64,000 nucleotides of DNA, taken from assembly GCA_035651035.1 (NCBI GenBank), contig DASRGM010000056.1, positions 2,877 to 66,876 on the forward strand, read 5' to 3'. Position 1 is the stretch's first letter, and every line of letters begins with the position of its first letter. Below are positions 1,192-63,860 of this stretch, in pieces. A model generated the notes under the pieces. That model was given only the letters and a program-made list of their open reading frames with translations. It was not told where the DNA came from and made no database searches. A program made the position numbers and the translations under genes. Origin of the DNA: Terriglobales bacterium (GTDB taxonomy: Bacteria; Acidobacteriota; Terriglobia; Terriglobales; Acidobacteriaceae).

Positions 1192-4571
<3,380 letters not shown>

Positions 4572-8846: not shown

Positions 8847-10367
8847 TTACCGCTCGTAGGTCGTGGCCCAGTCCCTTAGTCGAGCTGCGATGGCGGGCGC
8901 CAGGACTCCTTCACGGAAGCGCCAGCGCCAGTTGCCGGAGGAACTGCCGGGAAGGTTCATGCGTCCTTCGCTGCCGACGCCGAGCACATCCTGCAGCGGA
9001 AACAGCACGGTGTCAGCTACCGACGCATTCAGGGTACGGATCATGACGAAGTTGATATCGCTGCCGTCGCTGTTGAGATAACGGCGCGCGTAGGCCATCT
9101 CCTTCTCGACATCTTCAGCGGTGCGCACGCTGCCCGCACCCGGTCTGCTGCTCCACCAGCCAAGGACCGTGTCATTGTCGTGCGTGCCTGTGTAGGCGAC
9201 GAGGTGGTGCGGGTAGTTGTGCGGCTTGAAATCAGGGGCCTGCGGGTCATTGCCGAAGGCGAATTGCAAGATCGCCATGCCGGGAAAACCGAACTGCTCG
9301 CGCAAGGCTTCCACTTCGGGCGTAATCACGCCAAGGTTTTCGGCTACGATGGGCAGGTCGCCGAGGGCACTTTTCAAGGCCGCGAACAAGGCCGCTCCCG
9401 GTCCTTTGACCCAGGCGCCATTCACTGCGGTGACTTCTCCGGCAGGAATCTCGTAGTAGGCCTCGAAGCCACGGAAGTGGTCGAGCCGGATCATGTCGAC
9501 CAGTTCCAGCGCCCGCCGGAAGCGCGCGATCCACCACGCGTACCCGTTCTTGGCGTGCGTTTCCCAGCGATAGATCGGGTTACCCCAAAGCTGCCCGGTG
9601 GCGCTGAAATAATCGGGCGGGACGCCGGCTACGACGTGCGGCTTGCCGTCCTCCTGCAATTCAAATAGATCGCGGTTGGCCCACACGTCCGCGCTGTCGA
9701 GCGCCACATAGATCGGCAAGTCGCCCATGATGCGAATGTCGTCGCGCGTGCAATGCGCTTTTAACTCGCACCATTGGCGCTCGAATTCAAACTGGATGAA
9801 CTTGTTGCATTCGATTTCCTCGCGCAGCTCGTGGCGGGCACGCTCCAATGCCGCAGGATCGCGCAGCGCCAGCTCGGGCTGCCATTCCATCCAAGCCACG
9901 AAATTGTGTACGTCCTTTAGCGCCATGAAGAGCGCGAAATCATCAAGCCACGAGGCATGCCGCTGACAAAATGCCTCGAACTCCTGGCGATCCTTTCCTG
10001 AGTTGTGCTGGAAATTCGCAAATGCTTTGCGCAGCAGCGGCAGCTTCCAGGCGATGACCGTTCCGAAGTCAACAATCTCGAGGGAAAAGTCCGGCCGTTC
10101 GGTGAGGTCGCTTGCCGACAAATAGCCGCGGTCCAGCAGACTATCCATGCTGATCAGCAGAGGATTGCCGGCAAAGGCGGAGAAGCACTGATACGGCGAG
10201 TCACCGTAACCGGTGGGACCGAGCGGCAGCACCTGCCAGATGCGCTGTCCCGAATCGCGCAGGAAGTCGGCAAAGGCATGCGCCTCCGCCCCCAGTTCGC
10301 CGATGCCGTAAATGCCGGGCAACGATGTGGGGTGCAGCAGAATGCCGCTGGATCGGGGGAATTTCAC
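8847..10367 (-). CDS. malQ: 4-alpha-glucanotransferase (amylomaltase, GH77)
   Basis: 506-aa ORF. SGILLHPTSLPG, WQVLPLGPTGYGDSPY and DHFRGF motifs match MalQ. GTG start. Confidence 0.92.
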   Translation of the reverse strand: MKFPRSSGILLHPTSLPGIYGIGELGAEAHAFADFLRDSGQRIWQVLPLGPTGYGDSPYQCFSAFAGNPLLISMDSLLDRGYLSASDLTERPDFSLEIVDFGTVIAWKLPLLRKAFANFQHNSGKDRQEFEAFCQRHASWLDDFALFMALKDVHNFVAWMEWQPELALRDPAALERARHELREEIECNKFIQFEFERQWCELKAHCTRDDIRIMGDLPIYVALDSADVWANRDLFELQEDGKPHVVAGVPPDYFSATGQLWGNPIYRWETHAKNGYAWWIARFRRALELVDMIRLDHFRGFEAYYEIPAGEVTAVNGAWVKGPGAALFAALKSALGDLPIVAENLGVITPEVEALREQFGFPGMAILQFAFGNDPQAPDFKPHNYPHHLVAYTGTHDNDTVLGWWSSRPGAGSVRTAEDVEKEMAYARRYLNSDGSDINFVMIRTLNASVADTVLFPLQDVLGVGSEGRMNLPGSSSGNWRWRFREGVLAPAIAARLRDWATTYER

Positions 10368-12857: not shown

Positions 12858-13026
12858 AAAGCTCTCCTTGTTTTTGTGAGTCGGTTGCGGCGAGTCGCCC
12901 AATGGCTGCGCCGCAATTTACCCCGTTAGTTGCCGGCGTAAAACTTCTGGTGCGTCAACAGGATGTCAAAGATTCGACACAATTCGTTCACAGCGTGGAA
13001 GTGCAGGTTTGCCGGAAGTGTGTCGA

Positions 13027-22498: not shown

Positions 22499-22516
22499 TA
22501 GGAAGCTCCGATGATC

Positions 22517-22639
22517 GCTTTTCGCCTTTCGCTGTTCGCCAGAGGCGCGGCCATGCCGAGAAGTAATAGAAGAAAGAAGCCGCTCGCCAAAGTTACGTCA
22601 GGACCTTAACCGCATGGCGAAAAGCTAACGGCGAAAAGC
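22517..22639. repeat. GGCGAAAAGC repeats (two direct, one inverted) between SRP RNA and fabH
   Basis: GCTTTTCGCC at 22517-22526, and GGCGAAAAGC at 22616-22625 and 22630-22639. A related GCGAA-rich block lies at 58311-58348. Confidence 0.7.
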
Positions 22640-22645
22640 GGTCTT

Positions 22646-22755
22646 TATGCCAGGCGCCAGTTGACCGCTGCACACGCACTGGCCTGCTACCGTTGCTTCC
22701 TTCCGGACCTGGCGGGATTCACAAGATTGCGTTGCGCGGGACCAGCGCCCGACTT
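22646..22755 (-). ncRNA. ffs: signal recognition particle RNA (4.5S / small SRP RNA)
   Basis: The minus strand reads ...GGGCGCUGGUCCCGCGCAACGC...CCAGGUCCGGAAGGAAGCAACGG...GUGCGUGUGC...GGCGCCUGGC. It contains the universally conserved domain-IV motif AGGUCCGGAAGGAAGCA. The 5' and 3' ends can pair. The ends are approximate. Confidence 0.85.
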
Positions 22756-24955: not shown

Positions 24956-25107
24956 TGATTCGTATCAGGGCACGACTTCAGTCGTGCCGATGAGGGCGTC
25001 ACCAACTTCCGGGCTTCACCCTTGCCGGAACGGCGACAGGGCTAAAGCCCAAGCAAGCCGAAGAGCTTATTGCCGGCACGTCTAAAGACGTATCCTGATA
25101 CGAATCA
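24956..25107. repeat. MITE-like element: 14-bp perfect terminal inverted repeats enclosing three internal hairpins
   Basis: TGATTCGTATCAGG (24956-24969) and CCTGATACGAATCA (25094-25107). Internal hairpins: GGCACGAC-TTCA-GTCGTGCC (24969-24988), GGGCT-AA-AGCCC (25039-25050), ACGTCT-AA-AGACGT (25078-25091). Confidence 0.6.
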
Positions 25108-44256: not shown

Positions 44257-45219
44257 ATGTCTTCCGTCGCCCTTCGCCCGCTCATGACTCCGGCTCTTGC
44301 GAAAGCTTCTGCCGATCGCCTCCGCGCCACCCTTGAATCCTCGCTGGGGGAGCAGCTCTCGTCCACCCTGCTGCTCCGCGAACGTGCCGCGCCGCTGACC
44401 GTCCCCTTCGGAATCGCTGCTTTAGATCGGCTGACGGGCGGCTTGCCTCGCGCTGCGCTTAGCGAAATCACCGGGCCGCCTTCGTCCGGTCGCACCGGCG
44501 TCATGCTGGCGGCCTTGGCCGGAGCCACACGCCGCCAGGAGATCTGCGCCCTGGTGGATGCCGGCGACAGCTTCGATCCCGCTTCGGCGGCCGCCGCAGG
44601 TCTCGATTTGGAGCGGCTGTTGTGGGTGCGGTGCGGCCCGGGATCGGCCCCTCCGGCGCGAAGCAACGCAGCCCGGCGCGGCAACTCCGCAGCGGGACCT
44701 GCACGCAGCGCCGGCTTTGCCTACGGTGGCGCGCTGGAGCAGGTGCTGAAAGTGACCGACCTGCTGCTGCAGGCCGGCGGCTTCGGCATGGTGGCGCTCG
44801 ATCTGGGCGATATTCCTGCGGAGAGCGCGCGGCGCGTGCCGCTCACTTCATGGTTTCGTTTTCGCCGTGCCGTGGAGCCCACGGCAACCGTGCTTTTGCT
44901 GATCGAGCAGGAGCCTTGTGCAAAGAGCTGTGCCTCGCTAGTGCTGCGAATGCAAGCCGAGGCGATCTGCGCGTCGGATACGGGCGGCGTTGCTGCCCAA
45001 GCTGCCAGCTCCGGGCTTCGAGCTACAAGCTCGCGGCTCGTAGCTCCGGGCCTCCGCCATCGCCCCGATGATGACCTGCGCATCCCCCCAACCCCTGCCG
45101 TGAGCCATGCCGCAGTGTTGCAGGGACTGCGCCTGCGCGCCGAGGTCACACGTTCCTGGGCGCAGCGCAGGCCGTCGCAATCGCAGGGCGCGCAGTTTGA
45201 ATTGCGCACTGCCGTTTGA
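44257..45219 (+). CDS. imuA: ImuA (RecA/SulA-fold component of the imuA-imuB-dnaE2 mutasome)
   Basis: 320-aa ORF. VPFGIAALDRLTGGLPRAALSEITGPPSSGRTGVMLAALA is the ImuA-type degenerate P-loop context. It is the first gene of the cassette. Confidence 0.8.
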   Translation: MSSVALRPLMTPALAKASADRLRATLESSLGEQLSSTLLLRERAAPLTVPFGIAALDRLTGGLPRAALSEITGPPSSGRTGVMLAALAGATRRQEICALVDAGDSFDPASAAAAGLDLERLLWVRCGPGSAPPARSNAARRGNSAAGPARSAGFAYGGALEQVLKVTDLLLQAGGFGMVALDLGDIPAESARRVPLTSWFRFRRAVEPTATVLLLIEQEPCAKSCASLVLRMQAEAICASDTGGVAAQAASSGLRATSSRLVAPGLRHRPDDDLRIPPTPAVSHAAVLQGLRLRAEVTRSWAQRRPSQSQGAQFELRTAV

Positions 45220-45220
45220 G

Positions 45221-45246
45221 ATAGAGCTGGCCTTCAGGCCAGCGTC
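45221..45246 (+). repeat. REP-like element (TAGAGC-hairpin-GCGTC family), copy 1
   Basis: ATAGAGCTGGCCTTCAGGCCAGCGTC, containing the hairpin CTGGCC-TTCA-GGCCAG. It begins 2 nt after the imuA stop. Confidence 0.8.
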
Positions 45247-45270
45247 TCAGGCTCTTTTTCTAACTTTCGA

Positions 45271-45286
45271 GCCGGCTTCAGCCGGC
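45271..45286 (+). repeat. perfect hairpin GCCGGC-TTCA-GCCGGC, 6 nt upstream of the imuB ATG
   Basis: Read directly from the sequence. Same C-TTCA-G loop as the REP-like family. Confidence 0.85.
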
Positions 45287-45292
45287 GACACC

Positions 45293-47029
45293 ATGTTTGC
45301 CTGCATCCATATCCCCGACTTTCCCGTCGAAGCCATCGTCCGCTCCGGGCCCCTGCTGCGCGAGCGGTCTGTCGCCGTTCTGGAAGGCAAGCCGCCGCTT
45401 ACCCGTGTCGTCGCCCTGAACGATAACGCCCGCCGGCTGGGAATGGAAGCCGGCATGACCAAACTGCAAGCCGCGGTCTTCGCCGAAAGCAATGTCCCAC
45501 AATCAGGTACTACAAACAGGCACACGGCAGTCCTGCGGCAACGCTCTCCGGAACAGGAAAATGCCGCCCACGCCGCGCTGCTCGATGTGGCGCACGCTTT
45601 TTCGCCGCGCGTGGAAGATGCCGCGGCCGACACGTTGTTGCTCGATCTCTCCGGCCTCGATCGACTCTACGGCCCCTCTTCACGGATGGGCAGCGACCTC
45701 AAATCGCGTGTGACCGCGGTGGGAATGGAAACCAACATTGCTGTGGCCGCCAATCCGGATGCTGCCTTGCACGCCGCCCTTGGATTTGAGGGGATTACGG
45801 TCATTCCCGCCGGACGGGAGGCCCAGCGCCTGGGCGTGCTGCCGGTGCAGGTGCTGCTGGATGGCTTGGCAATCTCCTGGCAGAAGGCAAGTAAAACTGT
45901 CTCGGAAGCCGATTGTGAGAAGCTGCGCGCACAGATGCTCGACACCCTTGAGCGCTGGGGGGTACGCGATTTCCGCAGCCTGGCGCTTCTGCCGGAGCAT
46001 GCTCTGGCTTCGCGCCTGGGACAGGCAGGAGCGCAGTTGCGGCGGCTGGCCCGCGGCGAAACCATGCGCACGCTGGTCTTATGCGAGCCGCCCGCGCAAT
46101 TTGAAGAGTCGATGGATTTGGAAGACCCGGTAGAAGCTATTGAGCCCTTGTCGTTCCTGCTGAACCGCCTCTTGGAGCAGCTCTGCGCCCGCCTCGAAAC
46201 CCGGGCCCTGGCGGCACAGGAGCTGTGCTTGCGCCTGCAGCTAGAGCCCCGGGTTGCCGACGAGCAAACTACCACCATTCAGGAGCTCAATGGTCCGACC
46301 ACTACATCTCACAATGTGGTACATAAGCCTATTGTGGAACGTGTACAGCGGCTGCCGGTTCCCATGCGCGATGGCAAGACGTTCCTGAAGCTGCTGCAAC
46401 TGGACCTGGCTGCCCATCCCCCCGGCGCCCCGGTGAGCAAACTTTGGATTTCGGCCCAGCCGGCACCACCGCGCGCTGGGCAACGGGGATTGTTTCTGCC
46501 TGTCAGCCCCGAGCCGGAAAAACTGGAAATCACGCTGGCGCGAATCAATGCCGTTGTCGGCGAACGGCGGGCCGGAATCGCGCGGCTGCTGGACAATCAT
46601 CGCCGCGACAGCCTCAAAATCGATCGCTTTATGGCAGCACCGGGCACCAACGCTTCTCCTCCGACAATGTCGGATACAGGCGATCGTGTGCTCGTGGCCA
46701 TGCGTCTCATCCGCCCCGCCCGCCGGCTGAAAGTTCGGATATCGGAAGAGGGTAGTCCTGTGGCTCTGGCCACTGACGCCAGACAATCGGAGCAAGCGGA
46801 ATTGGAGGGAAAGGTAATGTGGTCCTCCGGTCCCTGGCGCTCTTCGGGTGACTGGTGGACCGAGAGCGGCAGCGGAATGCAATCCGGCCCATGGGATCGC
46901 GAGGAGTGGGACATCGCTTTGGCCTGCAAAATCAATGGCGCAAGTGGGCCAGAGGAAAATGTCGCGCTATATCGCATTTATTGCGATATAGGCACAGGTC
47001 AATGGTTCGCCGACGCCAGCTATGACTGA
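45293..47029 (+). CDS. imuB: ImuB (Y-family DNA polymerase-like protein)
   Basis: Start moved to MFACIHIPDFPVEAI, the canonical ImuB/Y-family N-terminus. 578 aa. Confidence 0.85.
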   Translation: MFACIHIPDFPVEAIVRSGPLLRERSVAVLEGKPPLTRVVALNDNARRLGMEAGMTKLQAAVFAESNVPQSGTTNRHTAVLRQRSPEQENAAHAALLDVAHAFSPRVEDAAADTLLLDLSGLDRLYGPSSRMGSDLKSRVTAVGMETNIAVAANPDAALHAALGFEGITVIPAGREAQRLGVLPVQVLLDGLAISWQKASKTVSEADCEKLRAQMLDTLERWGVRDFRSLALLPEHALASRLGQAGAQLRRLARGETMRTLVLCEPPAQFEESMDLEDPVEAIEPLSFLLNRLLEQLCARLETRALAAQELCLRLQLEPRVADEQTTTIQELNGPTTTSHNVVHKPIVERVQRLPVPMRDGKTFLKLLQLDLAAHPPGAPVSKLWISAQPAPPRAGQRGLFLPVSPEPEKLEITLARINAVVGERRAGIARLLDNHRRDSLKIDRFMAAPGTNASPPTMSDTGDRVLVAMRLIRPARRLKVRISEEGSPVALATDARQSEQAELEGKVMWSSGPWRSSGDWWTESGSGMQSGPWDREEWDIALACKINGASGPEENVALYRIYCDIGTGQWFADASYD

Positions 47030-47071: not shown

Positions 47072-47091
47072 GGCACGGCTTCAACCGTGCC
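47072..47091 (+). repeat. GGCACGG-CTTCAA-CCGTGCC hairpin in the imuB-dnaE2 gap
   Basis: Same family as 24969-24988, 49781-49800 and 49908-49927. A T5 run follows 7 nt later. Confidence 0.8.
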
Positions 47092-47110
47092 GAACGTGTT
47101 TTTCCCCTGG

Positions 47111-47131
47111 CCACTGACCACTGACCACTGC
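47111..47131 (+). repeat. tandem heptamers CCACTGA CCACTGA CCACTGC, ending 1 nt before the dnaE2 start codon
   Basis: Read directly from the sequence. Confidence 0.85.
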
Positions 47132-47132
47132 T

Positions 47133-50100
47133 TTGTACATCGAACTCCACGCCCGCTCCGCCTTCAGCTTCCTCGAGGGAGCCTCCGTCCCCGAGGAGTT
47201 CGCCGAGGTCTGCTCCCAACACGAAATGCCGGCTATGGCACTGCTGGATCGCGACGGCGTCTATGGCGCACCGCGTTTTTATCTGGCAGCCCAAAAACTG
47301 AAGCTCAAAGCGCACATCGGCGCGGAGATCACCTCGCTATTTCCCGGCGGAGATCTCGCAAATCCTGCCGAACTGCCTCGCTTGTCTCTGCTATGCGCCT
47401 CTCGCGAGGGCTACCAGAACCTTTGCCGCCTGATTACCCGCACCAAACTGCGCGCCCCAAAATATCCCGCTTCACTCCCACGACGTAAGACAAAACTGCA
47501 CAACGATATACCACAATGTGAGGCTGAAGAACTGGTTCAATACCAATCGACGGCTACCCTCGCCGATCTCGCCGAATATTCTCCCGGCCTCATCTGTCTG
47601 ACCGGGGGCGACGAAGGTCCGCTGGCGCACGCACTGGAGCGCGGCGGTCTCAGTGAGGCGCGCGCGCAGCTCGAGCGGCTGGTCTCGCTTTACGGGGGAG
47701 AAAATGTTTATGTTGAGCTGCAGCGCCACTATAACCGCGCGCAGGAGGCCCGCAATCAGGCTGCAATCGAGCTGGCACGCAGTCTGCAACTTCCGCTGCT
47801 GGCAACCCAGGGCGCGCAATACGCTCGCCCGCAAGAGCGCCAGATCCTCGACGTCTTCACCTGCATCCGCAATCACCGCACGCTCGATACCGCCGGCCGG
47901 CTGCTGGCGCGCAACAGCGAACGCCACCTGAAAACGCCGCAGCAGATGATGCAGCTCTTCGCCGGCCTGCCCGAAGCGTCAGCGAATACGCTGGAGCTGT
48001 CCTCGCGCCTCGAATTCACGCTCCACGATCTCGGCTACGAATTCCCGCGCTACCCCGTGTCCGACGGCGAAACGATGGATTCCTTCCTGCGCGCCCGCAC
48101 CCTGGAAGGCGCGCGCAACCGCTATCTGCGTCCCGGGCAGGGTGAGCTGTGGCAACGCGCGCGGCGGCAAATCGAGCGCGAGCTCATGCTCATCGAGAAG
48201 CTGAAGCTCGCCGGTTACTTCTTGATCGTGTGGGATATCGTGCGCCACTGTCGCGAGCATGGCATCCTGGTGCAGGGCCGCGGCTCGGCCGCCAACAGTG
48301 CGGTCTGTTATTCGCTCGGCATTACTGCTGTCGATCCCGTCGGCATGGACCTGCTCTTCGAGCGCTTCCTCTCGGAGGAGCGTGGCGAGTGGCCTGACAT
48401 CGATCTCGACCTGCCTAGCGGCGACCAGCGCGAGCGCGCCATTCAATATGTCTATGAGCGCTACGGCAAGCTGGGCGCGGCCATGACCGCCAACGTCATC
48501 ACCTATCGTGGGCGGTCGGCGGCGCGCGAGGTAGGCAAGGCGCTCAGCTTCGACGGCGAGACCCTCGACCGGCTGGCCGGCCTGGTCAGCTCGTGGGAGT
48601 ACAAAGACCCGGGCGACACGCTGGAGCGGCAATTCCGCGATGCCGGTTTCGACCTGCGCCACCCGCGCATCCGCAAGTTTTTCGAGCTCTGCCTGGCGGT
48701 GCAGGACCTGCCGCGCCATTTGGGCCAACACTCCGGCGGCATGGTCATCTGCCAGGGACAACTGGATTCCATCGTGCCGCTGGAGCCCGCAACCATGCCC
48801 GGCCGCGTCGTGGTGCAGTGGGACAAGGAAGACTGCGCCGACATGGGCATTGTCAAAGTCGATCTTCTCGGCCTGGGTATGATGGCCGTGCTGGAAGATT
48901 CGATCACCCTCATCCGCAATCACTGCAGGGAAGAAGTGGATCTGGCCAAACTACCGGCTGACGATCCCACAGTGTATGACACGCTGCAGAAGGCCGATAC
49001 GGTGGGCATGTTTCAGATCGAGAGCCGGGCACAGATGTCGTGCCTGCCGCGGCTGCGTCCCACCCACTTCTACGACATTGTGGTACAGGTGGCGATCATT
49101 CGTCCCGGCCCGATTGTGGGCCAGATGGTCAACCCGTACCTGATGCGCCGGCAGGGCCGGCAGGCGGTGGTCTATCCGCATCCTTCGCTGGAACCGGTGT
49201 TGGAGCGCACCCTCGGCGTGCCGCTCTTCCAGGAGCAACTGCTGCGCGTGGCCATGATCACCGCCGGCTTCAGCGGCGGAGAGGCGGAAGAGCTGCGGCG
49301 CGCCTTCGGCTTCAAACGCAGCGAAAAGCGCATGCGCGATATCGAGGTCAAGCTGCGCGAAGGCATGACGCGCAATGGCATCCCGCCCGCGGCGCAGCAG
49401 GAGATCATTCAGTCCATCACCTCGTTTGCGCTGTACGGATTTCCCGAGTCGCACGCCGCCAGCTTCGCGCTGATCGCATATGCCAGCGCCTATTTGAAGT
49501 GCCACTATCTGGCGGCGTTCACTGCCGCGCTGCTGAACAATCAGCCGATGGGGTTCTATTCGCCGGCGACAATCGTGAAAGATGCGCAGCGGCACGGGCT
49601 GCGGGTGAAGCCGGTGGACATCACGCGCTCGGAGTGGCTGTGCACGCTGGAGGGCGAGAAAGATCTGGCTATGTGGAATGGAGCAGAGAGAAGGGAAGTA
49701 GACAGAAATCGCGCAGACAGAAACGGCGCCGAGAGCAATCGAGCCGAGAGAAATTGCGCCGAAGCAGATGGTTTTGAAGGGGCACGGCTTCAGCCGTTCC
49801 GTAAGCTGCCCGGAATGGGTTCGGCTTCAGCCGCTGAGGAGACTCGCAGTTCATACCAACCCGAAGCCCCTCGGCGGCTAAAGCCTGTCTCGAGTGATGA
49901 TAGGTACGGCACCGCTAAAGCCGTGCCCTTTCAAAATGACGAAGAGGCTTCAGGCGCGCCCTTCGACAAGCTCAGGGCAAGTTCTGAAGGCGCGCCGCTT
50001 CAAAGCCGGCGTTTCGCTTTGCGCATGGGGCTTCGTTATGCCAAGGGACTGCGCGAAGAAACAGCGCGGGCGATTCTTCGCGAGCGTGAAAAGCGGCCGT

Positions 50101-50924
50101 TCGAATCGATTGCCGACCTGGCGTATCGCGTTCCCCAACTCCGCCGCGATGAATTCGTGCTGCTGGCTTCGATCGGAGCGCTGAATTCGATTGGCTGCGT
50201 CGAGGGAGTCTCAGAACAAGGTAGAGCAGGCCTTCAGGCCCGCGTCCCGCAACGCCGTACGAAATCAGTTCAGGCGCTGAAGTCATCGGCCTCATCGCAT
50301 GAACTCCAGAATGTTATGTCTGGAGACGCGGGCCTGAAAGCCGGCCATGAGCTTGTCGAAGGGCCCCGCTCTACCCTCCATCGCCGCGATGCCCTATGGC
50401 AGGTGGAGCGTGCGGCGCGCTTCGCCGGGCCGCTGCTGGAGAGCATCCCCGAAAGCGACAGCGCATCGCCGCTGGCGCGCATGAGCGACGAAGAGCGTCT
50501 GGTCGCGGATTTTCATGGCACCGGGCTCACCGTCGGCCCACATCCAATGTCGTATCGCCGCGCGCAATTGCGGCGCGCGCGCGTTCTTTCGGCCGAGGAT
50601 TTGAAGCAGGCGATACATGGCCGGCGCGTGCGCACTGCCGGCTGCGTAATCGCCCGCCAGCGTCCGGGCACGGCCAAGGGCTTCGTCTTCCTCAGTCTGG
50701 AGGACGAGACCGGCATCAGCAATGCCATCATCACGCCCGATATCCTCGAGCAGAACCGGGTCCTGATTACGACGGAGAAATTTCTGCTGCTGGAGGGCGT
50801 GCTGCAGAAGCAGGAAGGCGTGATTTCGGTGAAGGTGGATCGCGTGCGGCCCATGCGCAAGGCCTACGCCGCCGATAATATCGACATCACCGACGCCGAC
50901 GTGCGCTCGCACGATTTTCATTAA
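47133..50924 (+). CDS. dnaE2: error-prone DNA polymerase DnaE2 (ImuC)
   Basis: 1263-aa ORF with a TTG start. N-terminal PHP domain (YIELHARSAFSFLEGAS), DnaE alpha core, and a C-terminal OB fold (GFVFLSLEDETG). It is the third gene after imuA-imuB. It contains two repeat-derived inserts (see findings). Confidence 0.92.
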   Translation: MYIELHARSAFSFLEGASVPEEFAEVCSQHEMPAMALLDRDGVYGAPRFYLAAQKLKLKAHIGAEITSLFPGGDLANPAELPRLSLLCASREGYQNLCRLITRTKLRAPKYPASLPRRKTKLHNDIPQCEAEELVQYQSTATLADLAEYSPGLICLTGGDEGPLAHALERGGLSEARAQLERLVSLYGGENVYVELQRHYNRAQEARNQAAIELARSLQLPLLATQGAQYARPQERQILDVFTCIRNHRTLDTAGRLLARNSERHLKTPQQMMQLFAGLPEASANTLELSSRLEFTLHDLGYEFPRYPVSDGETMDSFLRARTLEGARNRYLRPGQGELWQRARRQIERELMLIEKLKLAGYFLIVWDIVRHCREHGILVQGRGSAANSAVCYSLGITAVDPVGMDLLFERFLSEERGEWPDIDLDLPSGDQRERAIQYVYERYGKLGAAMTANVITYRGRSAAREVGKALSFDGETLDRLAGLVSSWEYKDPGDTLERQFRDAGFDLRHPRIRKFFELCLAVQDLPRHLGQHSGGMVICQGQLDSIVPLEPATMPGRVVVQWDKEDCADMGIVKVDLLGLGMMAVLEDSITLIRNHCREEVDLAKLPADDPTVYDTLQKADTVGMFQIESRAQMSCLPRLRPTHFYDIVVQVAIIRPGPIVGQMVNPYLMRRQGRQAVVYPHPSLEPVLERTLGVPLFQEQLLRVAMITAGFSGGEAEELRRAFGFKRSEKRMRDIEVKLREGMTRNGIPPAAQQEIIQSITSFALYGFPESHAASFALIAYASAYLKCHYLAAFTAALLNNQPMGFYSPATIVKDAQRHGLRVKPVDITRSEWLCTLEGEKDLAMWNGAERREVDRNRADRNGAESNRAERNCAEADGFEGARLQPFRKLPGMGSASAAEETRSSYQPEAPRRLKPVSSDDRYGTAKAVPFQNDEEASGAPFDKLRASSEGAPLQSRRFALRMGLRYAKGLREETARAILREREKRPFESIADLAYRVPQLRRDEFVLLASIGALNSIGCVEGVSEQGRAGLQARVPQRRTKSVQALKSSASSHELQNVMSGDAGLKAGHELVEGPRSTLHRRDALWQVERAARFAGPLLESIPESDSASPLARMSDEERLVADFHGTGLTVGPHPMSYRRAQLRRARVLSAEDLKQAIHGRRVRTAGCVIARQRPGTAKGFVFLSLEDETGISNAIITPDILEQNRVLITTEKFLLLEGVLQKQEGVISVKVDRVRPMRKAYAADNIDITDADVRSHDFH
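49686..49760 (+). repeat. 15-bp tandem repeat, about 5 units, in frame within dnaE2
   Basis: Units are GAGAGAAGGGAAGTA, GACAGAAATCGCGCA, GACAGAAACGGCGCC, GAGAGCAATCGAGCC and GAGAGAAATTGCGCC. They encode ([DE]-R/S-N-x-A)n. Confidence 0.8.
49781..49800 (+). repeat. GGCACGGC-TTCA-GCCGTTCC hairpin inside dnaE2
   Basis: Same family as the intergenic copies at 24969 and 47072. Confidence 0.8.
49908..49927 (+). repeat. GGCACCGC-TAAA-GCCGTGCC hairpin inside dnaE2
   Basis: Variant of the same hairpin family. Confidence 0.7.
50220..50246 (+). repeat. REP-like element, copy 2 (inside dnaE2)
   Basis: GGTAGAGCAGGCCTTCAGGCCCGCGTC. It is 25/27 identical to the copy at 57938-57964. Confidence 0.85.
50325..50375 (-). 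repeat. inverted, extended REP-like copy (partner of 50220-50246) inside dnaE2
   Basis: The reverse complement reads GGTAGAGCGGGGCCCTTCGACAAGCTCATGGCCGGCTTTCAGGCCCGCGTC. Confidence 0.75.
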
Positions 50925-51021: not shown

Positions 51022-51405
51022 GTGGACGAAGTCGATACACACCCTCTGGCGGAGATTCGCTGGGAAGGAGACTCCCGCGAGATTCTGGCAAGCTTTCCGG
51101 AAGAGGTTCGAGGCAGCTTGGGTTTTGCTCTTTACGAGCTTCAGCTTGGCAGGCCGCCGTCAATTTCGACGCGCCGCATGGAATCGATTGGGGCAGGCGT
51201 CTACGAGTTGAAGGAAAGCGACGCAAAGAGCTGGTACCGAGTCGTATACCTCTCGAAGATTAACGATCTGATCTACGTACTGCACTGCTTTGAAAAGCAG
51301 CATCGCAAGACCACTCGGCGGGACCTTGACGTTGCCAGGGAGAGGCTGTCACGTGTCCGGCAGCGAATACAGGAGTATAAAAAACATGCGAGGGGCAGAA
51401 AATAA
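51022..51405 (+). CDS. type II toxin, RelE/ParE superfamily (HigB / phage Gp49-like)
   Basis: 127-aa ORF (GTG start). W.G.S...L..FP..VR...G..L..LQ.G, G.GVYEL, YRVVY and VYVLHCFEKQHRKT are typical of Gp49/HigB-like toxins. Confidence 0.8.
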   Translation: MDEVDTHPLAEIRWEGDSREILASFPEEVRGSLGFALYELQLGRPPSISTRRMESIGAGVYELKESDAKSWYRVVYLSKINDLIYVLHCFEKQHRKTTRRDLDVARERLSRVRQRIQEYKKHARGRK

Positions 51406-51709
51406 GCCGGCCCATATTACTCGAGGCAATGTCTTCCTCGATCTGGGATTCCCGCCGGAGAAAGCTCTGGCCCTGAAGTTCAAGGCCAGGATTCTCATCG
51501 CCATACTCGATGAGGTGAAGCGCCGCAAGTACCGCCAGGCTCAACTCGTCAAGGTTCTTGTCGAGCACCAACCGGTTGTCAGCAATCTGCTGCGCGGCAA
51601 AGTCACTCAGATGAGTATTGAGAAGCTGCTGATTTATGCGGACCGCCTGGGACTACCCCTTGACGTTCAAAGGCCGCGAATTCACTCGCGCCGTCGCCAG
51701 GCTGCCTAG
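51386..51709 (+). CDS. XRE-family HTH antitoxin (HigA-like)
   Basis: Start at MRGAENK, overlapping the toxin gene by 20 nt. 107 aa. NVFLDLGF at the N-terminus and HTH (QAQLVKVLVEHQPVVSNLLRGK) are typical of partners of Gp49-type toxins. Confidence 0.8.
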   Translation: MRGAENKPAHITRGNVFLDLGFPPEKALALKFKARILIAILDEVKRRKYRQAQLVKVLVEHQPVVSNLLRGKVTQMSIEKLLIYADRLGLPLDVQRPRIHSRRRQAA

Positions 51710-56100: not shown

Positions 56101-56171
56101 CCGCCGGCCACTCGCTGTTATGCCGCGAAGTCTTCGCGACTTTCCCCATCGCTTTGCTGGCTCCGGAATGA
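53145..56171 (+). CDS. treY: malto-oligosyltrehalose synthase
   Basis: 1008-aa ORF. STYRLQFNRDFRF, LGITHCYASPILKARAGSPHGYD, and VDHPDGL catalytic region. Confidence 0.9.
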   Translation: MRTASSTLIDEATELCACMEELARTKRDRIPLSTYRLQFNRDFRFEDARHLIPYLAQLGITHCYASPILKARAGSPHGYDIIDHTQLNPEIGTEFEFREFVGELKRHGMGLLLDIVPNHMGVGHGDNPWWQDVLQNGRASVYADFFDIDWEPLKPELWNKVLIPVLGDPYGEDLEAGNIKLTCEDGHFCVNYFDKVLPVDPQTLPLIFTPYNHAGPVAQRGGIPPELDSLLAAFGRLPVNCSTDPGEVRRRQQEMPRLIEQLERLYRTSQPVRDSIAEHLRRMNGTPGNAASFDALHELLERQAYRLAFWRVSGEEINYRRFFDINDLVGLRMDNPRVFAETHKLIRRLLADDLISGLRVDHPDGLLNPAEYFMRLQRLYAASRCLGAEPASATAGDGIELEIHSAFAERPPGQQQAPLYLLIEKILERGEHLPAQWPADGTVGYDFANLVNGVLIDGRHERFFTKLYQRVIEGATRVDRLIYESKKLVMRRALASEVNVLTHMLNEISNGDRRARDYTRGVLREAIRETIACFPVYRTYIDERGNVSEMDREYIQQATDCAKRYNGTIAPAAFDFLRRILLDGGNGDGAIYGYHRRLYFTLKFQQLTGPVMAKGLEDTACYIYARFLSCNEVGGTPAEFSLPVAEFHRGNQKRAEHWPASMLATSTHDTKRSEDVRARLDVLSEMPNLWAAQVMKWRRINRSRKPELPDGRVVPDNNEEYFLYQTLVGAWPLNVRGDEERQDFVRRIQQYMQKALHEAKVNLSWLNPNSEYVAGVDQFIDRILSPRYRGKPNLFWDSLQKFLPPVMFFGAINSLTQTLLKLTCPGVPDVYQGQEMWDFSLVDPDNRRPVDFEVRQKTLDEICALARAQDLRTVCHELLQDYRDGRLKLWTTALTLRFRGQNRDLFQLGSYVPLHVGRSREEHVIAFARLHQEQLAIVAAPRLSYTLMKGKEEPPLGAAWGDAELVLPPEAAGRHLRNVFTGERFAAGHSLLCREVFATFPIALLAPE

Positions 56172-57680
56172 GGCTTGCTGTTCGCAGCTCTCGCGATCGG
56201 TGATTTCGACCAGGTGCGCCAGCTTCGCCGCCAGTTCGTCGGTGAGGACGTCGCGTTCCAGCCGCCACTTCCAGCTCCCGTCCGCCTCACTGGGAACATT
56301 CATCCTGGCTTCGCTGCCCAGGCCAAGCACATCCTGCATCGGTACCACGCACAATCTCGCTACCGAGGTCAGGATGGCGCGAATAAATGCCCAGTTGATC
56401 TCGTCATCGCCATCGCCGATGCCCAGGTAGGCGCCCGCATGCTGGCGCTCTTCCTCGCTGGCCGTTCGCCACCAGCCCAGCACCGTGTCATTGTCGTGCG
56501 TCCCGGTGTAGGCCACGCAGTTGGGCTTGTAGTTGTGCGGCAGGTAGATGTGCGCTCCCTTATTGCCGAAGCCGAACTGCAGGACTTTCATGCCCGGAAT
56601 CTTCAGCGCATCGCGCAGCTTATGCACCTCGGGGGTGATGTAGCCAAGGTCTTCGGCGATGAAGGGCAGCTTGCCCAGCGACTCCTGCAATGACTGGAAG
56701 AAGGTCTGGTTCGGGCCCAGCACCCAGCGCCCGTTCACTGCGGTGGGCTCGTCCGCCGGGATCTCCCAATAGGCCTCGAAGCCGCGGAAGTGGTCGATGC
56801 GGATGATGTCGCACGAGGCCAGCGCCCAGCGCAGCCGTTCCACCCACCAGCGATACCCGATCGAGTGCAGCGCCTCCCATTCGTACAGAGGATTTCCCCA
56901 GCGCTGCCCGGTCTCGCTGAACGCGTCCGGCGGGACGCCCGCGACCACCTCGGGCGTCAGGTCTTCTTTCAGGCGAAACAGTCCGGGATACGTCCACACG
57001 TCGGAGCTGTCGTAGCTGACGAAGATGGAGACGTCGCCGATGATGCGGATGCCCCGCTCGCTGCAGTAGGCGCGCAGCGCGCTCCATTGCTCGAAGAATG
57101 CGAATTGCAGGAATCGTTCGTGGTCGAGCTCGGGACGCAGCTGGGTGTGCAGCTTCTTCACTGCCTCTGGATCGCGCCGCGAAAAGTCCGGGGGCCAGGT
57201 GTTCCACGGCTGCTCGCCGAGATGCTCGCGCAGCACGCTGAACATCACGTAGTCGTCGAGCCAGGCGGAATTCTGCCGGCAGAACTCTTCGTAACGGGCG
57301 CGCGCGCTGCTGGCGGCGTTGCGCATGAATCGCGCGGCGGCCTTCTTCAGCAGCGGCATCTTGTAGGCGCGAACTGCCTCGTAATCGACGGGCGACTTGC
57401 CGTCCCAGCCGTCATGCAAGCGCGCCGCGTCTACCAGGCCGCGTTCTGCCAGGCGCTCCAGGCTGATCAGCAATACATTGCCGGCAAAAGCCGAGGTGCA
57501 GGAGTAGGGCGAGTTGCCGCAGCCCACTGGCTGCAAGGGCAGGATCTGCCACAATGTCTGACCCGCAGCGGCCAGCCAGTCGGCAAACTCATACGCCGCC
57601 GGCCCCAGGTCGCCAATGCCTCCGCGCGAGGGCAGCGAGCTGGGGTGCAGCAGGATTCCGGAGGCGCGCTCAGAAAGCAT
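56118..57680 (-). CDS. malQ: 4-alpha-glucanotransferase, second paralogue
   Basis: Start moved to MLSERASGILLHPSSLPS. GH77 motifs match those of the first copy. The C-terminal ~25 aa extend into the 3' end of treY, giving a 54-nt convergent overlap. Confidence 0.88.
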   Translation of the reverse strand: MLSERASGILLHPSSLPSRGGIGDLGPAAYEFADWLAAAGQTLWQILPLQPVGCGNSPYSCTSAFAGNVLLISLERLAERGLVDAARLHDGWDGKSPVDYEAVRAYKMPLLKKAAARFMRNAASSARARYEEFCRQNSAWLDDYVMFSVLREHLGEQPWNTWPPDFSRRDPEAVKKLHTQLRPELDHERFLQFAFFEQWSALRAYCSERGIRIIGDVSIFVSYDSSDVWTYPGLFRLKEDLTPEVVAGVPPDAFSETGQRWGNPLYEWEALHSIGYRWWVERLRWALASCDIIRIDHFRGFEAYWEIPADEPTAVNGRWVLGPNQTFFQSLQESLGKLPFIAEDLGYITPEVHKLRDALKIPGMKVLQFGFGNKGAHIYLPHNYKPNCVAYTGTHDNDTVLGWWRTASEEERQHAGAYLGIGDGDDEINWAFIRAILTSVARLCVVPMQDVLGLGSEARMNVPSEADGSWKWRLERDVLTDELAAKLAHLVEITDRESCEQQASFRSQQSDGESREDFAA

Positions 57681-57937
57681 AGGGGGATCGGATGCGTGCG
57701 TGCTGCAAGCTCGCATACATACTAGCGTAAGAAGGGTGGTAGTGCCGGGACGCCCCACCAGCTGTCATCCTGAGCGGAGCGACCGCGCAACTGCCCTGAC
57801 AAACGCGGCTTCTTCGCGTTTGGTGGCGCAGTTGTCCCGGTCGCGGAGTCGAAGGGCCCTACATCGCAGCGTCGTTTGCGGCGCACTCATCCGCGGGCTT
57901 CGGGGTGAGTGGGTGGCTCACCTGGAACGCTGGTGCG

Positions 57938-57964
57938 GGTAGAGTGGGCCTTCAGGCCCGCGTC
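57938..57964 (+). repeat. REP-like element, copy 3
   Basis: GGTAGAGTGGGCCTTCAGGCCCGCGTC. Confidence 0.85.
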
Positions 57965-58353: not shown

Positions 58354-60330
58354 CTACGAACCCGCCAGGCTCGTCACCCGGTCCATCTCTTTCTTGTTGA
58401 TCTTGATCTTGCCTTGTTTTTCCAGCGTGCTGCGCAGGTTATCGACGTAGAGGTTTTCGAACTCCTGCCGCCGCTGCTCCACCAGCGCCTGCCGCGCCTT
58501 CTCCCAATCCTGTTTCGTTTGCGCTTCGGTGGGCGTCTCGACCTCGAGCACCTTCACTACCGCGCCGTTGCTTCCCGCTTGAATGGCGCCGCTGATCTCG
58601 CCCGGCTTCATGCCGAAGACAACCCCCAGAGGTCCGCTCATGGCGCCCAGCTCGGGCAGCTGCGCATTGCTGTCGACCAGGTCGCTGGTCTTGACGGTGG
58701 CCCCCGCTTCCTTCGCCGCCTTGTCCAGATCATGCTCGGAGTGGGCGCGATCGGCAAGCTCCTGCGTCTTCTGCGCCAGCAGTTGATCGGCGCGCTGCGA
58801 CTTGAACTGCTGCTCGATCTTGTCCTTCACTTGCTCGAATGTGGGCGTCTGCGGCGGCTGAATATCGGTCACCTGGTACACCACGTAGCCCGTCGGAGTC
58901 GCGGCGACCGCCGGCGGATCGTTCTTCTTGGCTCCCAGCAGCGCGGTCATCAGGTCCGGAGCGACCCCGACATCGGGCAATTGATCGCCTTGCGATACAA
59001 AGTCGGTGGTCGTGACCTTCAGGTTGCGCTCCTGCGCCGCTTTGTCGAGTCCCACAGTGTGGGCTAGCGCCTGGAGCGTATTGGCCACGCTCTGCGCCTG
59101 GGTTTGCGCCTTCTGCTTCTTCAGGATGGGCTCGATCTCCGGCTTCACTTCGTCGAGCGGCTTCAGCCGGGCCTCCTGCTTGGCCTCGACGTGAATGATG
59201 TGGAAGCCGTAGGTGGTGCGAATCACGCCGGTGGTCTGTCCGACCGGAGTGTTGAAGGCTGCCTGCTCGAACTCGGGCACGGTGCGGCCGCGCGTGATCG
59301 CCGGCAATAGGCCGCCGTCTTTCGCGGTGCTGGGGTCTTCAGAGTACTTCTTCGCCAGATCGGCGAAATTTGCGCCCGCCTTCAACTGCTTGGCGATGTC
59401 GTCGGCCTTGGCCTTGGCGGCGTCGACGGCTTTCTGGTCGACCTTGCCGCTGGCGTCCGGCGTGGGCGTCTTGATCAGGATGTGGCGCACCGTCACCGTC
59501 TCAGGGATGCGGAACTGGTCCTGGTTCTGCCGGTAATACTGCTGCAACTCGGCGGGCGTGACCGTCGCCTGCTGCTCCAGGCTGTTGGTGTCGATCACGA
59601 TGTACTTGGCCTTCACCTTCTCCGGAATCGAGTTCACATACTGCTGCTTGTTCTGGTTGTAGAAGGCCTTCAGTTCGGCGTCGGTGGGCTTGATCTGCTT
59701 CTTGATGTCGTCCAGCGAGAGCACGGCGTACTCGAACTTCACCTTCGTGTCCTGCCGCTTCAACTCCTCGCGAATGTCCTTCTCGCTGACCGTGACTGCC
59801 GAGCCGATGGCGGCCAGCAGCTTGTGCTGCGCGATTTCGGCCTTCACCTCCTGCTCGAACTGCTGCACTCCCATGCGAAACTCGGACTCGATCAGCTGTT
59901 CGTAACGGTCTTCGCCGATGAAGACGCCGTTGGGAAACAGCTGCTTGCCGAATTCGCCCTCATGGAGATAGTCGCGCAGCTCGTCGTCGGTGACACCCAG
60001 CCCCATCTTGTCGGCCTCATACACCACCGCTTTTTCGGTGATGACGTTCTCGGCAGCGCGCGACATCAGGTAGGGCATGAGCCCCTCGGGAACGTTGCCC
60101 CTAAACTGCTGCTGGCCGATGAGCCGCGCCTGCTGCGACACTTGCTGAATGCTGATTTCCTGGTCGCCGACTTTGGCGAGCACCCCTTGGGTCGTGAGGC
60201 TGCCGCCAAGATAGTCGCCGAAAATGCCGCCGGGAACGAGGGTGATGACCATCATCACGCAAACCACGACCAGAAGGCCGCCAAGGACAATCTTCTTTAT
60301 CGGTCCCGGCTGCTGCAAAAATCGAATCAT
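58354..60330 (-). CDS. ppiD: periplasmic chaperone / peptidyl-prolyl isomerase PpiD-like
   Basis: 658-aa ORF. N-terminal TM anchor, SurA_N-like domain, and a parvulin domain (VRHILIK...GFHIIHV). Confidence 0.88.
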   Translation of the reverse strand: MIRFLQQPGPIKKIVLGGLLVVVCVMMVITLVPGGIFGDYLGGSLTTQGVLAKVGDQEISIQQVSQQARLIGQQQFRGNVPEGLMPYLMSRAAENVITEKAVVYEADKMGLGVTDDELRDYLHEGEFGKQLFPNGVFIGEDRYEQLIESEFRMGVQQFEQEVKAEIAQHKLLAAIGSAVTVSEKDIREELKRQDTKVKFEYAVLSLDDIKKQIKPTDAELKAFYNQNKQQYVNSIPEKVKAKYIVIDTNSLEQQATVTPAELQQYYRQNQDQFRIPETVTVRHILIKTPTPDASGKVDQKAVDAAKAKADDIAKQLKAGANFADLAKKYSEDPSTAKDGGLLPAITRGRTVPEFEQAAFNTPVGQTTGVIRTTYGFHIIHVEAKQEARLKPLDEVKPEIEPILKKQKAQTQAQSVANTLQALAHTVGLDKAAQERNLKVTTTDFVSQGDQLPDVGVAPDLMTALLGAKKNDPPAVAATPTGYVVYQVTDIQPPQTPTFEQVKDKIEQQFKSQRADQLLAQKTQELADRAHSEHDLDKAAKEAGATVKTSDLVDSNAQLPELGAMSGPLGVVFGMKPGEISGAIQAGSNGAVVKVLEVETPTEAQTKQDWEKARQALVEQRRQEFENLYVDNLRSTLEKQGKIKINKKEMDRVTSLAGS

Positions 60331-61776: not shown

Positions 61777-61803
61777 GGTAGAGCGGCGCTTCAGCGCCGC
61801 GTC
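61777..61803 (+). repeat. REP-like element, copy 4
   Basis: GGTAGAGCGGCGCTTCAGCGCCGCGTC. The flanks and loop match the other copies. The stem is changed by compensatory substitutions. Confidence 0.8.
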
Positions 61804-62232: not shown

Positions 62233-62308
<76 letters not shown>

Positions 62309-63637: not shown

Positions 63638-63860
63638 AATAGTGGCTCACACGCTGGCTTGAAGTGTGTGCGTGAGAACCCTGTCGTCCCTCCTTGATTT
63701 TGGCTCTCGTTCCCAGCTTACCCAGCGCTGAACGCGTTGGGCTAACCTCTTCCGCGCCTACGGCGCTGCATTCTGGCGGCAGAGCGATTCCTTTGTTCCA
63801 CCAAGTGATTGTGAATCGGGTTCTCACCCGCTCATTGAAGTCCTTCGCAGAGCTCTTTTT

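Follow-up and report, generated by a model that had tools for sequence, protein, structure and literature searches.

In a 64,000-nucleotide (nt) stretch of DNA from a Terriglobales bacterium (GenBank assembly GCA_035651035.1, contig DASRGM010000056.1, positions 2,877 to 66,876 of the forward strand; hereafter the window), the gene for the error-prone DNA polymerase DnaE2 (dnaE2 or imuC; 47133-50924, plus strand, 1263 amino acids [aa]) carries two blocks of palindromic repeat DNA, and both blocks are lineage-specific insertions. We consider it very probable that repeats of this kind, which are non-autonomous and normally intergenic, entered dnaE2 at two turns of the encoded protein, where they are translated and tolerated as loops. 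The inserts are most likely neutral selfish DNA.

The open reading frame (ORF) has the domain architecture of a DnaE2 protein (Pfam domains PHP, Pol III alpha, fingers, helix-hairpin-helix [HhH], and OB) and follows imuA and imuB. Its product is 100% identical to P0001, which NCBI lists as "error-prone DNA polymerase [Terriglobales bacterium]," and its relatives are annotated as Candidatus Korobacteraceae. A first-pass annotation, made from the letters of the window, had remarked that the product is longer than usual; it exceeds the shortest common form among close orthologs (1101 aa) by 162 aa.

Two lineage-specific insertions and their repeats

Block A (49653-50009, plus strand) occupies aa 841-959, between EWLCTLE and RFALRMG, and block B (50196-50378, plus strand) occupies aa 1022-1082, between GALNSIG and LHRRDALW. 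Among about 200 acidobacterial DnaE2 sequences compared overall, indels were confined to these two sites and a third loop, in the PHP domain, and lengths and indels were surveyed in the 120 best homologs (71 to 100% identity, 1086 to 1287 aa). All indels among these 120 proteins fell at site A, at site B, in a PHP-domain loop after aa 72-83, or at a minor spot at aa 121-129. In the common 1101-aa form, site A reads EWLCTLE-ED-FALRMG, and orthologs P0003, P0043, L003, and L082 lack block A. Site B holds 3 to 22 aa in orthologs, with a 22-aa linker in the 1101-aa form and only about 3 to 7 aa in basal Acidobacteriota. The first-pass annotation had proposed that the blocks might be lineage-specific loop insertions polymorphic among relatives, and both ideas held, since presence or absence at both sites varied even between orthologs with 97% backbone identity.

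The sole clean pair of this kind is P0042 (locus L203) and P0058 (L204), whose backbones are 97.4% identical. The two genes differ at site A by exactly 168 nt, located between CTGGAG and GACGGC, and the L203 insert has perfect 13-nt inverted termini (TTGAAGGGGCGCG / CGCGCCCCTTCAA). Comparison of the occupied site (CTGGAG|element|GACGGC) with the empty one (CTGGAA|GACGAC) revealed no target-site duplication at this pair. The closest relative of the window gene, L081, comes from an independent JGI metagenome contig and carries both blocks at 83 to 85% nucleotide identity.

The same hairpin at the same site was translated in different frames and orientations in different lineages (EGARLQP, GTAKAVP, GHGFSHA, WKGTALAVP), and the identity of the inserts thus lies at the DNA level, not the protein level. 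In more distant Acidobacteriota, the same loops hold unrelated, lineage-typical families, such as SKSKVQSPKSK...TLDIGHWTLD in Pyrinomonadaceae. Insert DNA from 74 loci matched spacers outside dnaE2 elsewhere in the same loci; a strict count of perfect-stem hairpins across loci gave 47 matches, too few and too family specific to be used alone. The PHP-domain loop, between GAEITSLL and PLLCASREGY (window 47346-47381, aa 72-83), is a third hot spot. In some orthologs (P0095, P0098, P0110, and P0116), peptides derived from repeats and up to about 50 aa long (such as GAKA..GLKPGAST and YGTPEGVPFQN) fill it; the window protein has no insert there.

All of the repeat elements that the first-pass annotation had listed were found again within the 1263-codon ORF, at the coordinates given. 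Block A consists, in order, of a short variable stretch, the annotated 15-nt tandem array (49704-49762; 3.9 copies encoding DRNRA/DRNGA/ESNRA/ERNCA; Tandem Repeats Finder score, 69), a 167-nt palindromic element (49770-49936), and an extra 72-nt hairpin segment (49937-50008) that abuts this element, encodes ...GAPFDKLRASSEGAPLQS, and is missing in L081. The 167-nt element has 32-nt inverted termini (arms at 49772-49803 and 49905-49936, 88% complementary) and contains four small hairpins that jointly fold into a single long one. Three hairpins of block A form one direct-repeat family, which also supplies the arms of the 32-nt inverted repeat: the two GGCACxGC-type hairpins at 49781-49800 and 49908-49927 and the hairpin at 49818-49837, within which lies the CGGC-TTCA-GCCG hairpin previously placed at 49822-49833. 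The predicted RNA fold of the element together with the 72-nt segment (49766-50010) has a free energy of -119.5 kcal/mol (z = -6.3).

The 167-nt element aligned end to end with an intergenic family member at 24956-25107 (plus strand, between a MiaB-like gene and pgpA; 34-nt arms, 85% complementary; fold z = -5.6) and with an element close upstream of dnaE2 in a metagenome-assembled genome (MAG) of Terracidiphilus. As had been noted from the letters, the block A hairpins have relatives at 24969-24988, within the former, and at 47072-47091 (plus strand; GGCACGGCTTCAACCGTGCC), in the imuB-dnaE2 spacer. The 167-nt element and its family members are short elements, non-coding on their own, that end in inverted repeats, with arms of 32 to 34 nt in the window and the perfect 13-nt terminal inverted repeat (TIR) in L203. 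In the four-hairpin elements (49770-49936, 24956-25107, and site A of L203), the small hairpins mostly have TTCA loops in the left half and mostly have TAAA loops in the right half. This asymmetry recurs between copies, and since the loops differ, the halves of an element are not exact reverse complements.

Block B contains a doublet (50220-50375, plus strand) of repetitive extragenic palindromes (REPs), made up of a GTAG-tagged REP at 50220-50246 and an inverted partner at 50325-50375. Its inner arms, separated by 78 nt and 90% complementary, lie at 50226-50246 and 50325-50345, its outer arms lie at 50220-50230 and 50365-50375, and its RNA is predicted to fold into one long hairpin (-76.4 kcal/mol, z = -5.35). 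In each REP, an initial GTAG precedes a stem of 7 bp with a TTCA loop. The 27-nt unit at 50220 is a short imperfect palindrome with a stem-loop, in the 20- to 40-nt range of REPs, and it recurs in the window (0 matches expected in shuffles). One intergenic copy (57938-57964, plus strand, between genes 56118-57758 and 58354-60330) matches it at 25 of 27 positions, as the first-pass annotation had found, and another, with 3 mismatches, lies directly after the imuA stop codon (45220-45246, plus strand). A further intergenic copy (GGTAGAGCGGCGCTTCAGCGCCGCGTC) lies at 61777-61803 (plus strand), and it and the 57938 copy share the REP form of block B. Three copies of the window, like L081, show the tag as G-GTAG-A, and the 45220 copy has GATAG instead. 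GTAG REPs number four in the 64 kb (three of them intergenic), with three more in other loci. The earlier statement that such repeats fill the intergenic DNA of the window was too strong, as only about six intergenic copies were found in 64 kb.

Another similarity pointed out earlier, the 15-mer CCTTCGACAAGCTCA common to block A (49960, plus strand) and block B (50348, minus strand), is present but is weaker evidence, since on its own it is only mildly unlikely (0.15 matches expected; at least 2 in 1 of 100 shuffles). A search of 49500-50500 with Rfam 15 covariance models returned only subthreshold chance matches, so that no described RNA family was found at the blocks. An intein was also considered and rejected: there was no intein or Hint match in Pfam, and the blocks are translations of hairpin repeats whose length varies among close relatives.

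Reading frame and position in the protein

The lengths of the blocks (351 and 183 nt) are multiples of 3, and the frame in use contains no stop codon in either, as the first-pass annotation had described. The other two sense frames are closed, with 2 and 9 stops in block A and 2 and 3 stops in block B.

To compare constraint along the gene, differences between the window and L081 were counted at codon positions 1/2/3. Upstream of the blocks (aa 1-842), the counts were 40/22/248 (93% aa identity), those in the HhH domain (aa 960-1021) were 7/1/21 (87%), and those in the C terminus (aa 1083-1263) were 16/7/70 (91%), whereas block A had 12/17/18 (67%) and block B had 10/7/11 (69%). Summed, the blocks are flat (22/24/29), while the rest of the gene is dominated by third-position changes (63/30/339; chi-square P of about 1e-13). 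Since third-position-dominated change persists downstream of the flat blocks, the frame is read through both of them into constrained domains. Strong purifying selection acts on the domains that lie downstream of both blocks. By these substitution patterns, the peptides of the blocks drift freely, without constraint at the protein level.

Block A interrupts the Pfam HHH_6 domain, whose match begins at model position 18 (aa 956). In an alignment of the window protein with Taq Pol III alpha (2HPI/3E0D), the stretches aa 701-843 and aa 965-1021 corresponded to residues 745-886 and 889-948, respectively, so that block A stands in place of a turn of two residues (887-888) and block B comes directly after GALDAFG (948). 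Both blocks are thus placed by alignment in tight turns that flank the HhH domain, in predicted surface loops. An AlphaFold2 model of aa 701-1263, weak overall, agreed with this placement in showing both blocks as coil (predicted local distance difference test [pLDDT] scores of 24 to 45), with scores of 70 to 89 for the HhH and OB parts.

Proposed arrival, targeting, and function of the inserts

Repeat content of genes was compared in the window and 80 genomic loci (1.65 Mb), all of which were selected for containing dnaE2 and whose genes were called with a crude codon score. Intergenic spacers of 600 nt or less from outside the cassette served as queries against gene interiors. The dnaE2 genes had 30 match regions in 262 kb, and in the 980 kb of other genes the short repeat-like regions numbered about 8, giving densities of 11.4 versus about 0.8 per 100 kb (14-fold; binomial P = 4e-14). 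As a control, treY, a window gene of similar length, was stable in length among its 120 best homologs (interquartile range, 1006 to 1011 aa, versus 1112 to 1189 aa for DnaE2).

The remainder of the imuA-imuB-dnaE2 cassette also seems to be affected. In-frame segments that match dnaE2 inserts or local repeats were observed in imuA-like and imuB genes elsewhere (L014 1033-4130, L018 267-3050, L043 8081-9778, L016 7895-9917, and L047 7375-9911, among others), and the ImuB protein of L043 contains the repeat-type segment ...LEAAGLQPRRYAKQKPYGAPEGAPLQ... in frame. A separate scan for perfect core hairpins in metagenome contigs, which favors young, perfect copies and so neither supports nor excludes enrichment, placed only three copies convincingly inside genes among the 127 matches listed (L104 4689, L167 6705, and L177 8083). 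By eye, from their motifs, the three genes encode a RecQ-like helicase (with the copy between PTGGGKSLCFQ and LVVSPLISLM), a RecG-like helicase, and an HpnE-like oxidase. An orthologous minus-strand gene of about 1.06 to 1.2 kb has a short intergenic-repeat match whose internal position (nt 283-339) is shared by four loci (L017 5385-6569, L026 5924-6985, L031 5392-6456, and L032 3698-4759) and may be a further recurrent in-gene site.

On the preferred reading, two kinds of element are involved: a four-hairpin element of roughly 165 nt with terminal inverted repeats and a GTAG-tagged REP in the form of an inverted doublet. Selection would keep only those insertions that have a length divisible by 3, are free of stops in the frame of the gene, and fall in a tolerant loop. 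The survivors would be translated as disordered surface loops on a polymerase that stays functional, with no selection on the encoded peptide. A loop that has acquired one hairpin element would then tend to grow by tandem slippage and by further insertions next to it, which would explain the hypervariable loops seen across Acidobacteriota. Given the GTAG tag, the lack of a target-site duplication, and the tyrosine transposases and TIR repeats reported for Koribacter versatilis, we infer that mobilization occurs on single-stranded DNA through a tyrosine (Y1) transposase of the IS200/IS605 type, that is, a REP- or TIR-associated tyrosine transposase (RAYT/TIRYT). Neutrality with respect to polymerase function is likewise presumed.

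Several results weigh against this reading. A Pfam scan of 43 of the 46 genes called in the 64-kb window found no Y1/HUH transposase, and only a handful of copies of the repeat families were counted. None of the 127 perfect core-hairpin copies listed from metagenome contigs lies in dnaE2, so the enrichment is carried by degenerate copies and by loci selected for their dnaE2. The AlphaFold2 model is poor overall (mean pLDDT of 50, from a shallow alignment of close relatives) and by itself says little about disorder. Lastly, neutral tolerance does not obviously explain why repeats are in excess in dnaE2, imuA, imuB, and repair helicases over other non-essential genes.

The repeats might instead have been copied from intergenic repeats without a transposase. 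Gene conversion or template switching could achieve this, as could slipped-strand events where the DNA is prone to form hairpins, with resident hairpins stalling replication and thereby creating hot spots. The 15-nt tandem array and the 72-nt segment with repeated ends beside the 167-nt element look like products of such copying, and the collapsed forms in some orthologs (GRAGLKARST) are as expected from deletion between two REPs. The Pfam result for the window genes and the missing target-site duplication at L203/L204 also fit. However, the 168-nt insert of L203 looks like the insertion of a discrete unit: the element is complete, its 13-nt inverted termini are perfect, and its site is otherwise empty and free of hairpins. 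The GTAG tag, moreover, is typical of RAYT-mobilized REPs (PMC3733652). On balance, we regard arrival by these routes as unlikely.

Another proposal, to which we assign a similarly low probability, is that the SOS mutasome operon, perhaps with recQ and recG, is a preferential target of single-strand hairpin transposons and not just a tolerant sink. This could come about if these genes were exposed as single-stranded DNA upon damage induction, when the elements would move, or if insertions that modulate mutagenesis were selected. If preferential targeting or selection does operate, the loops would be fast-evolving tuning knobs of stress-induced mutation throughout the phylum.

It is rather improbable that the inserts are kept for a function, whether as mRNA hairpins or flexible loops beside the HhH domain that tune the expression or activity of the polymerase or through selection for an altered or disabled mutasome. 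The enrichment in dnaE2 and the presence of repeats in imuA and imuB would suit this idea, as would the finding that, of the three perfect copies placed convincingly inside genes among the matches listed, two are in RecQ- and RecG-like helicases, the great stability of the predicted RNA structures, and the frequency of replication and repair genes among REP-tagged genes (PMC3733652). Against it, neither the sequence nor the length of the sites is conserved, presence varies at 97% backbone identity, unrelated repeat families occupy the sites in different lineages, substitutions are flat over codon positions, and many orthologs, including the common 1101-aa form, are insert free. The variable linkers and mRNA structures that the first-pass annotation had offered as functions are therefore unsupported, since the blocks evolve without protein-level constraint; a functional role of the blocks is not supported, and the enrichment in mutasome genes stays unexplained.

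That the blocks are an ancestral DnaE2 linker, an assembly artifact, or part of a pseudogene is scarcely credible: although the source is a MAG and frame changes occur in 4 of 80 related dnaE2 loci (L035 4699-4767, L002 3201-3344, L054 about 12867-12886, and L074 about 4356-4363), close, basal, and repeat-free orthologs lack the block residues, the same architecture in the independent L081 contig rules out an assembly artifact, and the ORF is intact with its downstream domains under purifying selection. Two of the four frame changes fall inside repeat insertions (site B of L035 and the PHP loop of L002). They may be real disruptions or assembly or sequencing errors in hairpin-rich DNA, and many of the MAGs may be long-read assemblies.

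Related systems and neighboring features

The preferred reading, insertion of mobile palindromes followed by neutral tolerance, has a classic parallel in the Rickettsia palindromic elements (RPEs). These elements of about 100 to 150 nt reportedly lie in frame in many genes and are translated, located at the protein surface, and compatible with function. The blocks resemble them in being apparently read-through, in-frame palindromic insertions in predicted surface loops, with the flanking domains preserved; we use this as a working analogy and not as a claim of sequence membership, and we expect the sequences to be unrelated. Unlike the RPE hosts, which have reduced, obligate intracellular genomes with insertions in many unrelated genes, the hosts here are free-living soil bacteria, and the insertions are concentrated in mutasome genes.

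The block A element family also resembles bacterial MITEs (miniature inverted-repeat transposable elements) in its size (about 150 to 170 nt), its lack of coding capacity on its own, its terminal inverted repeats, and its dispersal. Most of the MITEs that descend from DDE transposons leave a target-site duplication, whereas the clean L203 insertion has none. Block B, as two inverted REPs 78 nt apart that form one long hairpin, has the defining layout of a REPIN, a REP doublet forming a hairpin. REPINs, however, are described as populations that lie outside genes and are linked to a RAYT present in one copy (Bertels & Rainey 2011, PMC3116915), and block B lies inside a gene.

The nearest precedent is the survey of Di Nocera, De Gregorio & Rocco (2013, BMC Genomics 14:522, PMC3733652), which describes normally extragenic palindromes in frame inside genes, names dnaE2 among them, and defines one of two large REP superfamilies by the GTAG tag that the block B REP carries. 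Among the REP-containing genes it lists are the dnaE2 genes of Opitutus terrae (Oter_4053, with the REP at aa 934-971) and Sphingomonas wittichii (Swit_1119, at aa 166-246) and the Rickettsia conorii dnaE gene (at aa 853-861), and the first-pass annotation's view that in-frame palindromic repeats are unusual in an error-prone polymerase gene consequently needs revision. According to the same survey, the only genes of a genome that carry a REP often belong to replication and repair, and Koribacter versatilis has tyrosine transposase genes with TIR repeat families. Its authors also raised the idea of a mutator and proposed linkers and loops as tolerated sites.

Intragenic REPs in dnaE2 are thus already known; what this case adds is the phylum, the longer composite inserts, the recurrent loops, the polymorphism, and the codon-position evidence. 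The host belongs to the Acidobacteriota (Korobacteraceae), outside the GTAG-repeat phyla named in the available part of that survey. The inserts are 119 and 61 aa long, compared with the 20 to 40 aa given there for typical dimer inserts and up to 82 aa for clusters, and they include a 167-nt four-hairpin element. The reuse of three loops by different families across a phylum, the polymorphism at 97% identity, and the lack of codon-level constraint likewise go beyond what that part of the survey describes.

Taken together, the dnaE2 blocks provide a clean, well-controlled case of selfish hairpin DNA absorbed into a protein as an unconstrained loop. They also show that a C-family polymerase can gain more than 100 aa next to its HhH domain without the gene escaping purifying selection. 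They extend an earlier unexplained association of REPs with repair genes to the Acidobacteriota, with quantitative support from the hot-spot loops, the 14-fold enrichment, and the stable control gene. In practical terms, the loops make the DnaE2 entries of databases longer and more varied in length, and they could be used as strain-level markers.

ORF callers can also extend genes through REPs, as at the start of imuB. This gene (45293-47029, plus strand) encodes an inactive Y-family polymerase (Pfam IMS match, E = 1.9e-14) and follows imuA (44257-45219, plus strand), the first gene of the cassette, which encodes a RecA-like protein (partial Pfam RecA match, E = 6e-12). The longest imuB ORF begins at 45107, 186 nt upstream of the conserved start, and spans two intergenic REP hairpins (45107-45292; …FEIELAFRPASQALFLTFEPASAGD…), so that the extended ORF is an annotation trap that would falsely append a REP-encoded N terminus. 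The second intergenic hairpin of the imuA-imuB spacer is GCCGGC-TTCA-GCCGGC (45271-45286, plus strand). Upstream of dnaE2, a 7-nt tandem repeat (CTGACCA, 3.4 copies, 47107-47130) stops 2 nt before the TTG start codon and occupies the position expected of the ribosome-binding site.

On the other side of dnaE2, a two-gene module (51022-51709), consisting of an unannotated ORF and a gene for an HTH_37 protein, separates it from a 3-hydroxyacyl-CoA dehydrogenase gene. The module looks like a toxin-antitoxin pair and is missing in the close relatives L081 and L082, in which the dehydrogenase gene adjoins dnaE2. Elsewhere in the window, a different palindromic element with 29-nt arms (86% complementary) adjoins the gene for the signal recognition particle RNA (Rfam RF00169, minus strand) at 22513-22643 and 22651-22748. 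An Acido-Lenti-1 RNA (Rfam RF01687; 45.4 bits, with a gathering score of 37 bits) and a tRNA gene were found at 63721-63767 and 62234-62306, respectively. The window also contains two full-length 4-alpha-glucanotransferase (GH77) paralogs (8847-10367 and 56118-57758), the second of which adjoins the malto-oligosyltrehalose synthase gene.

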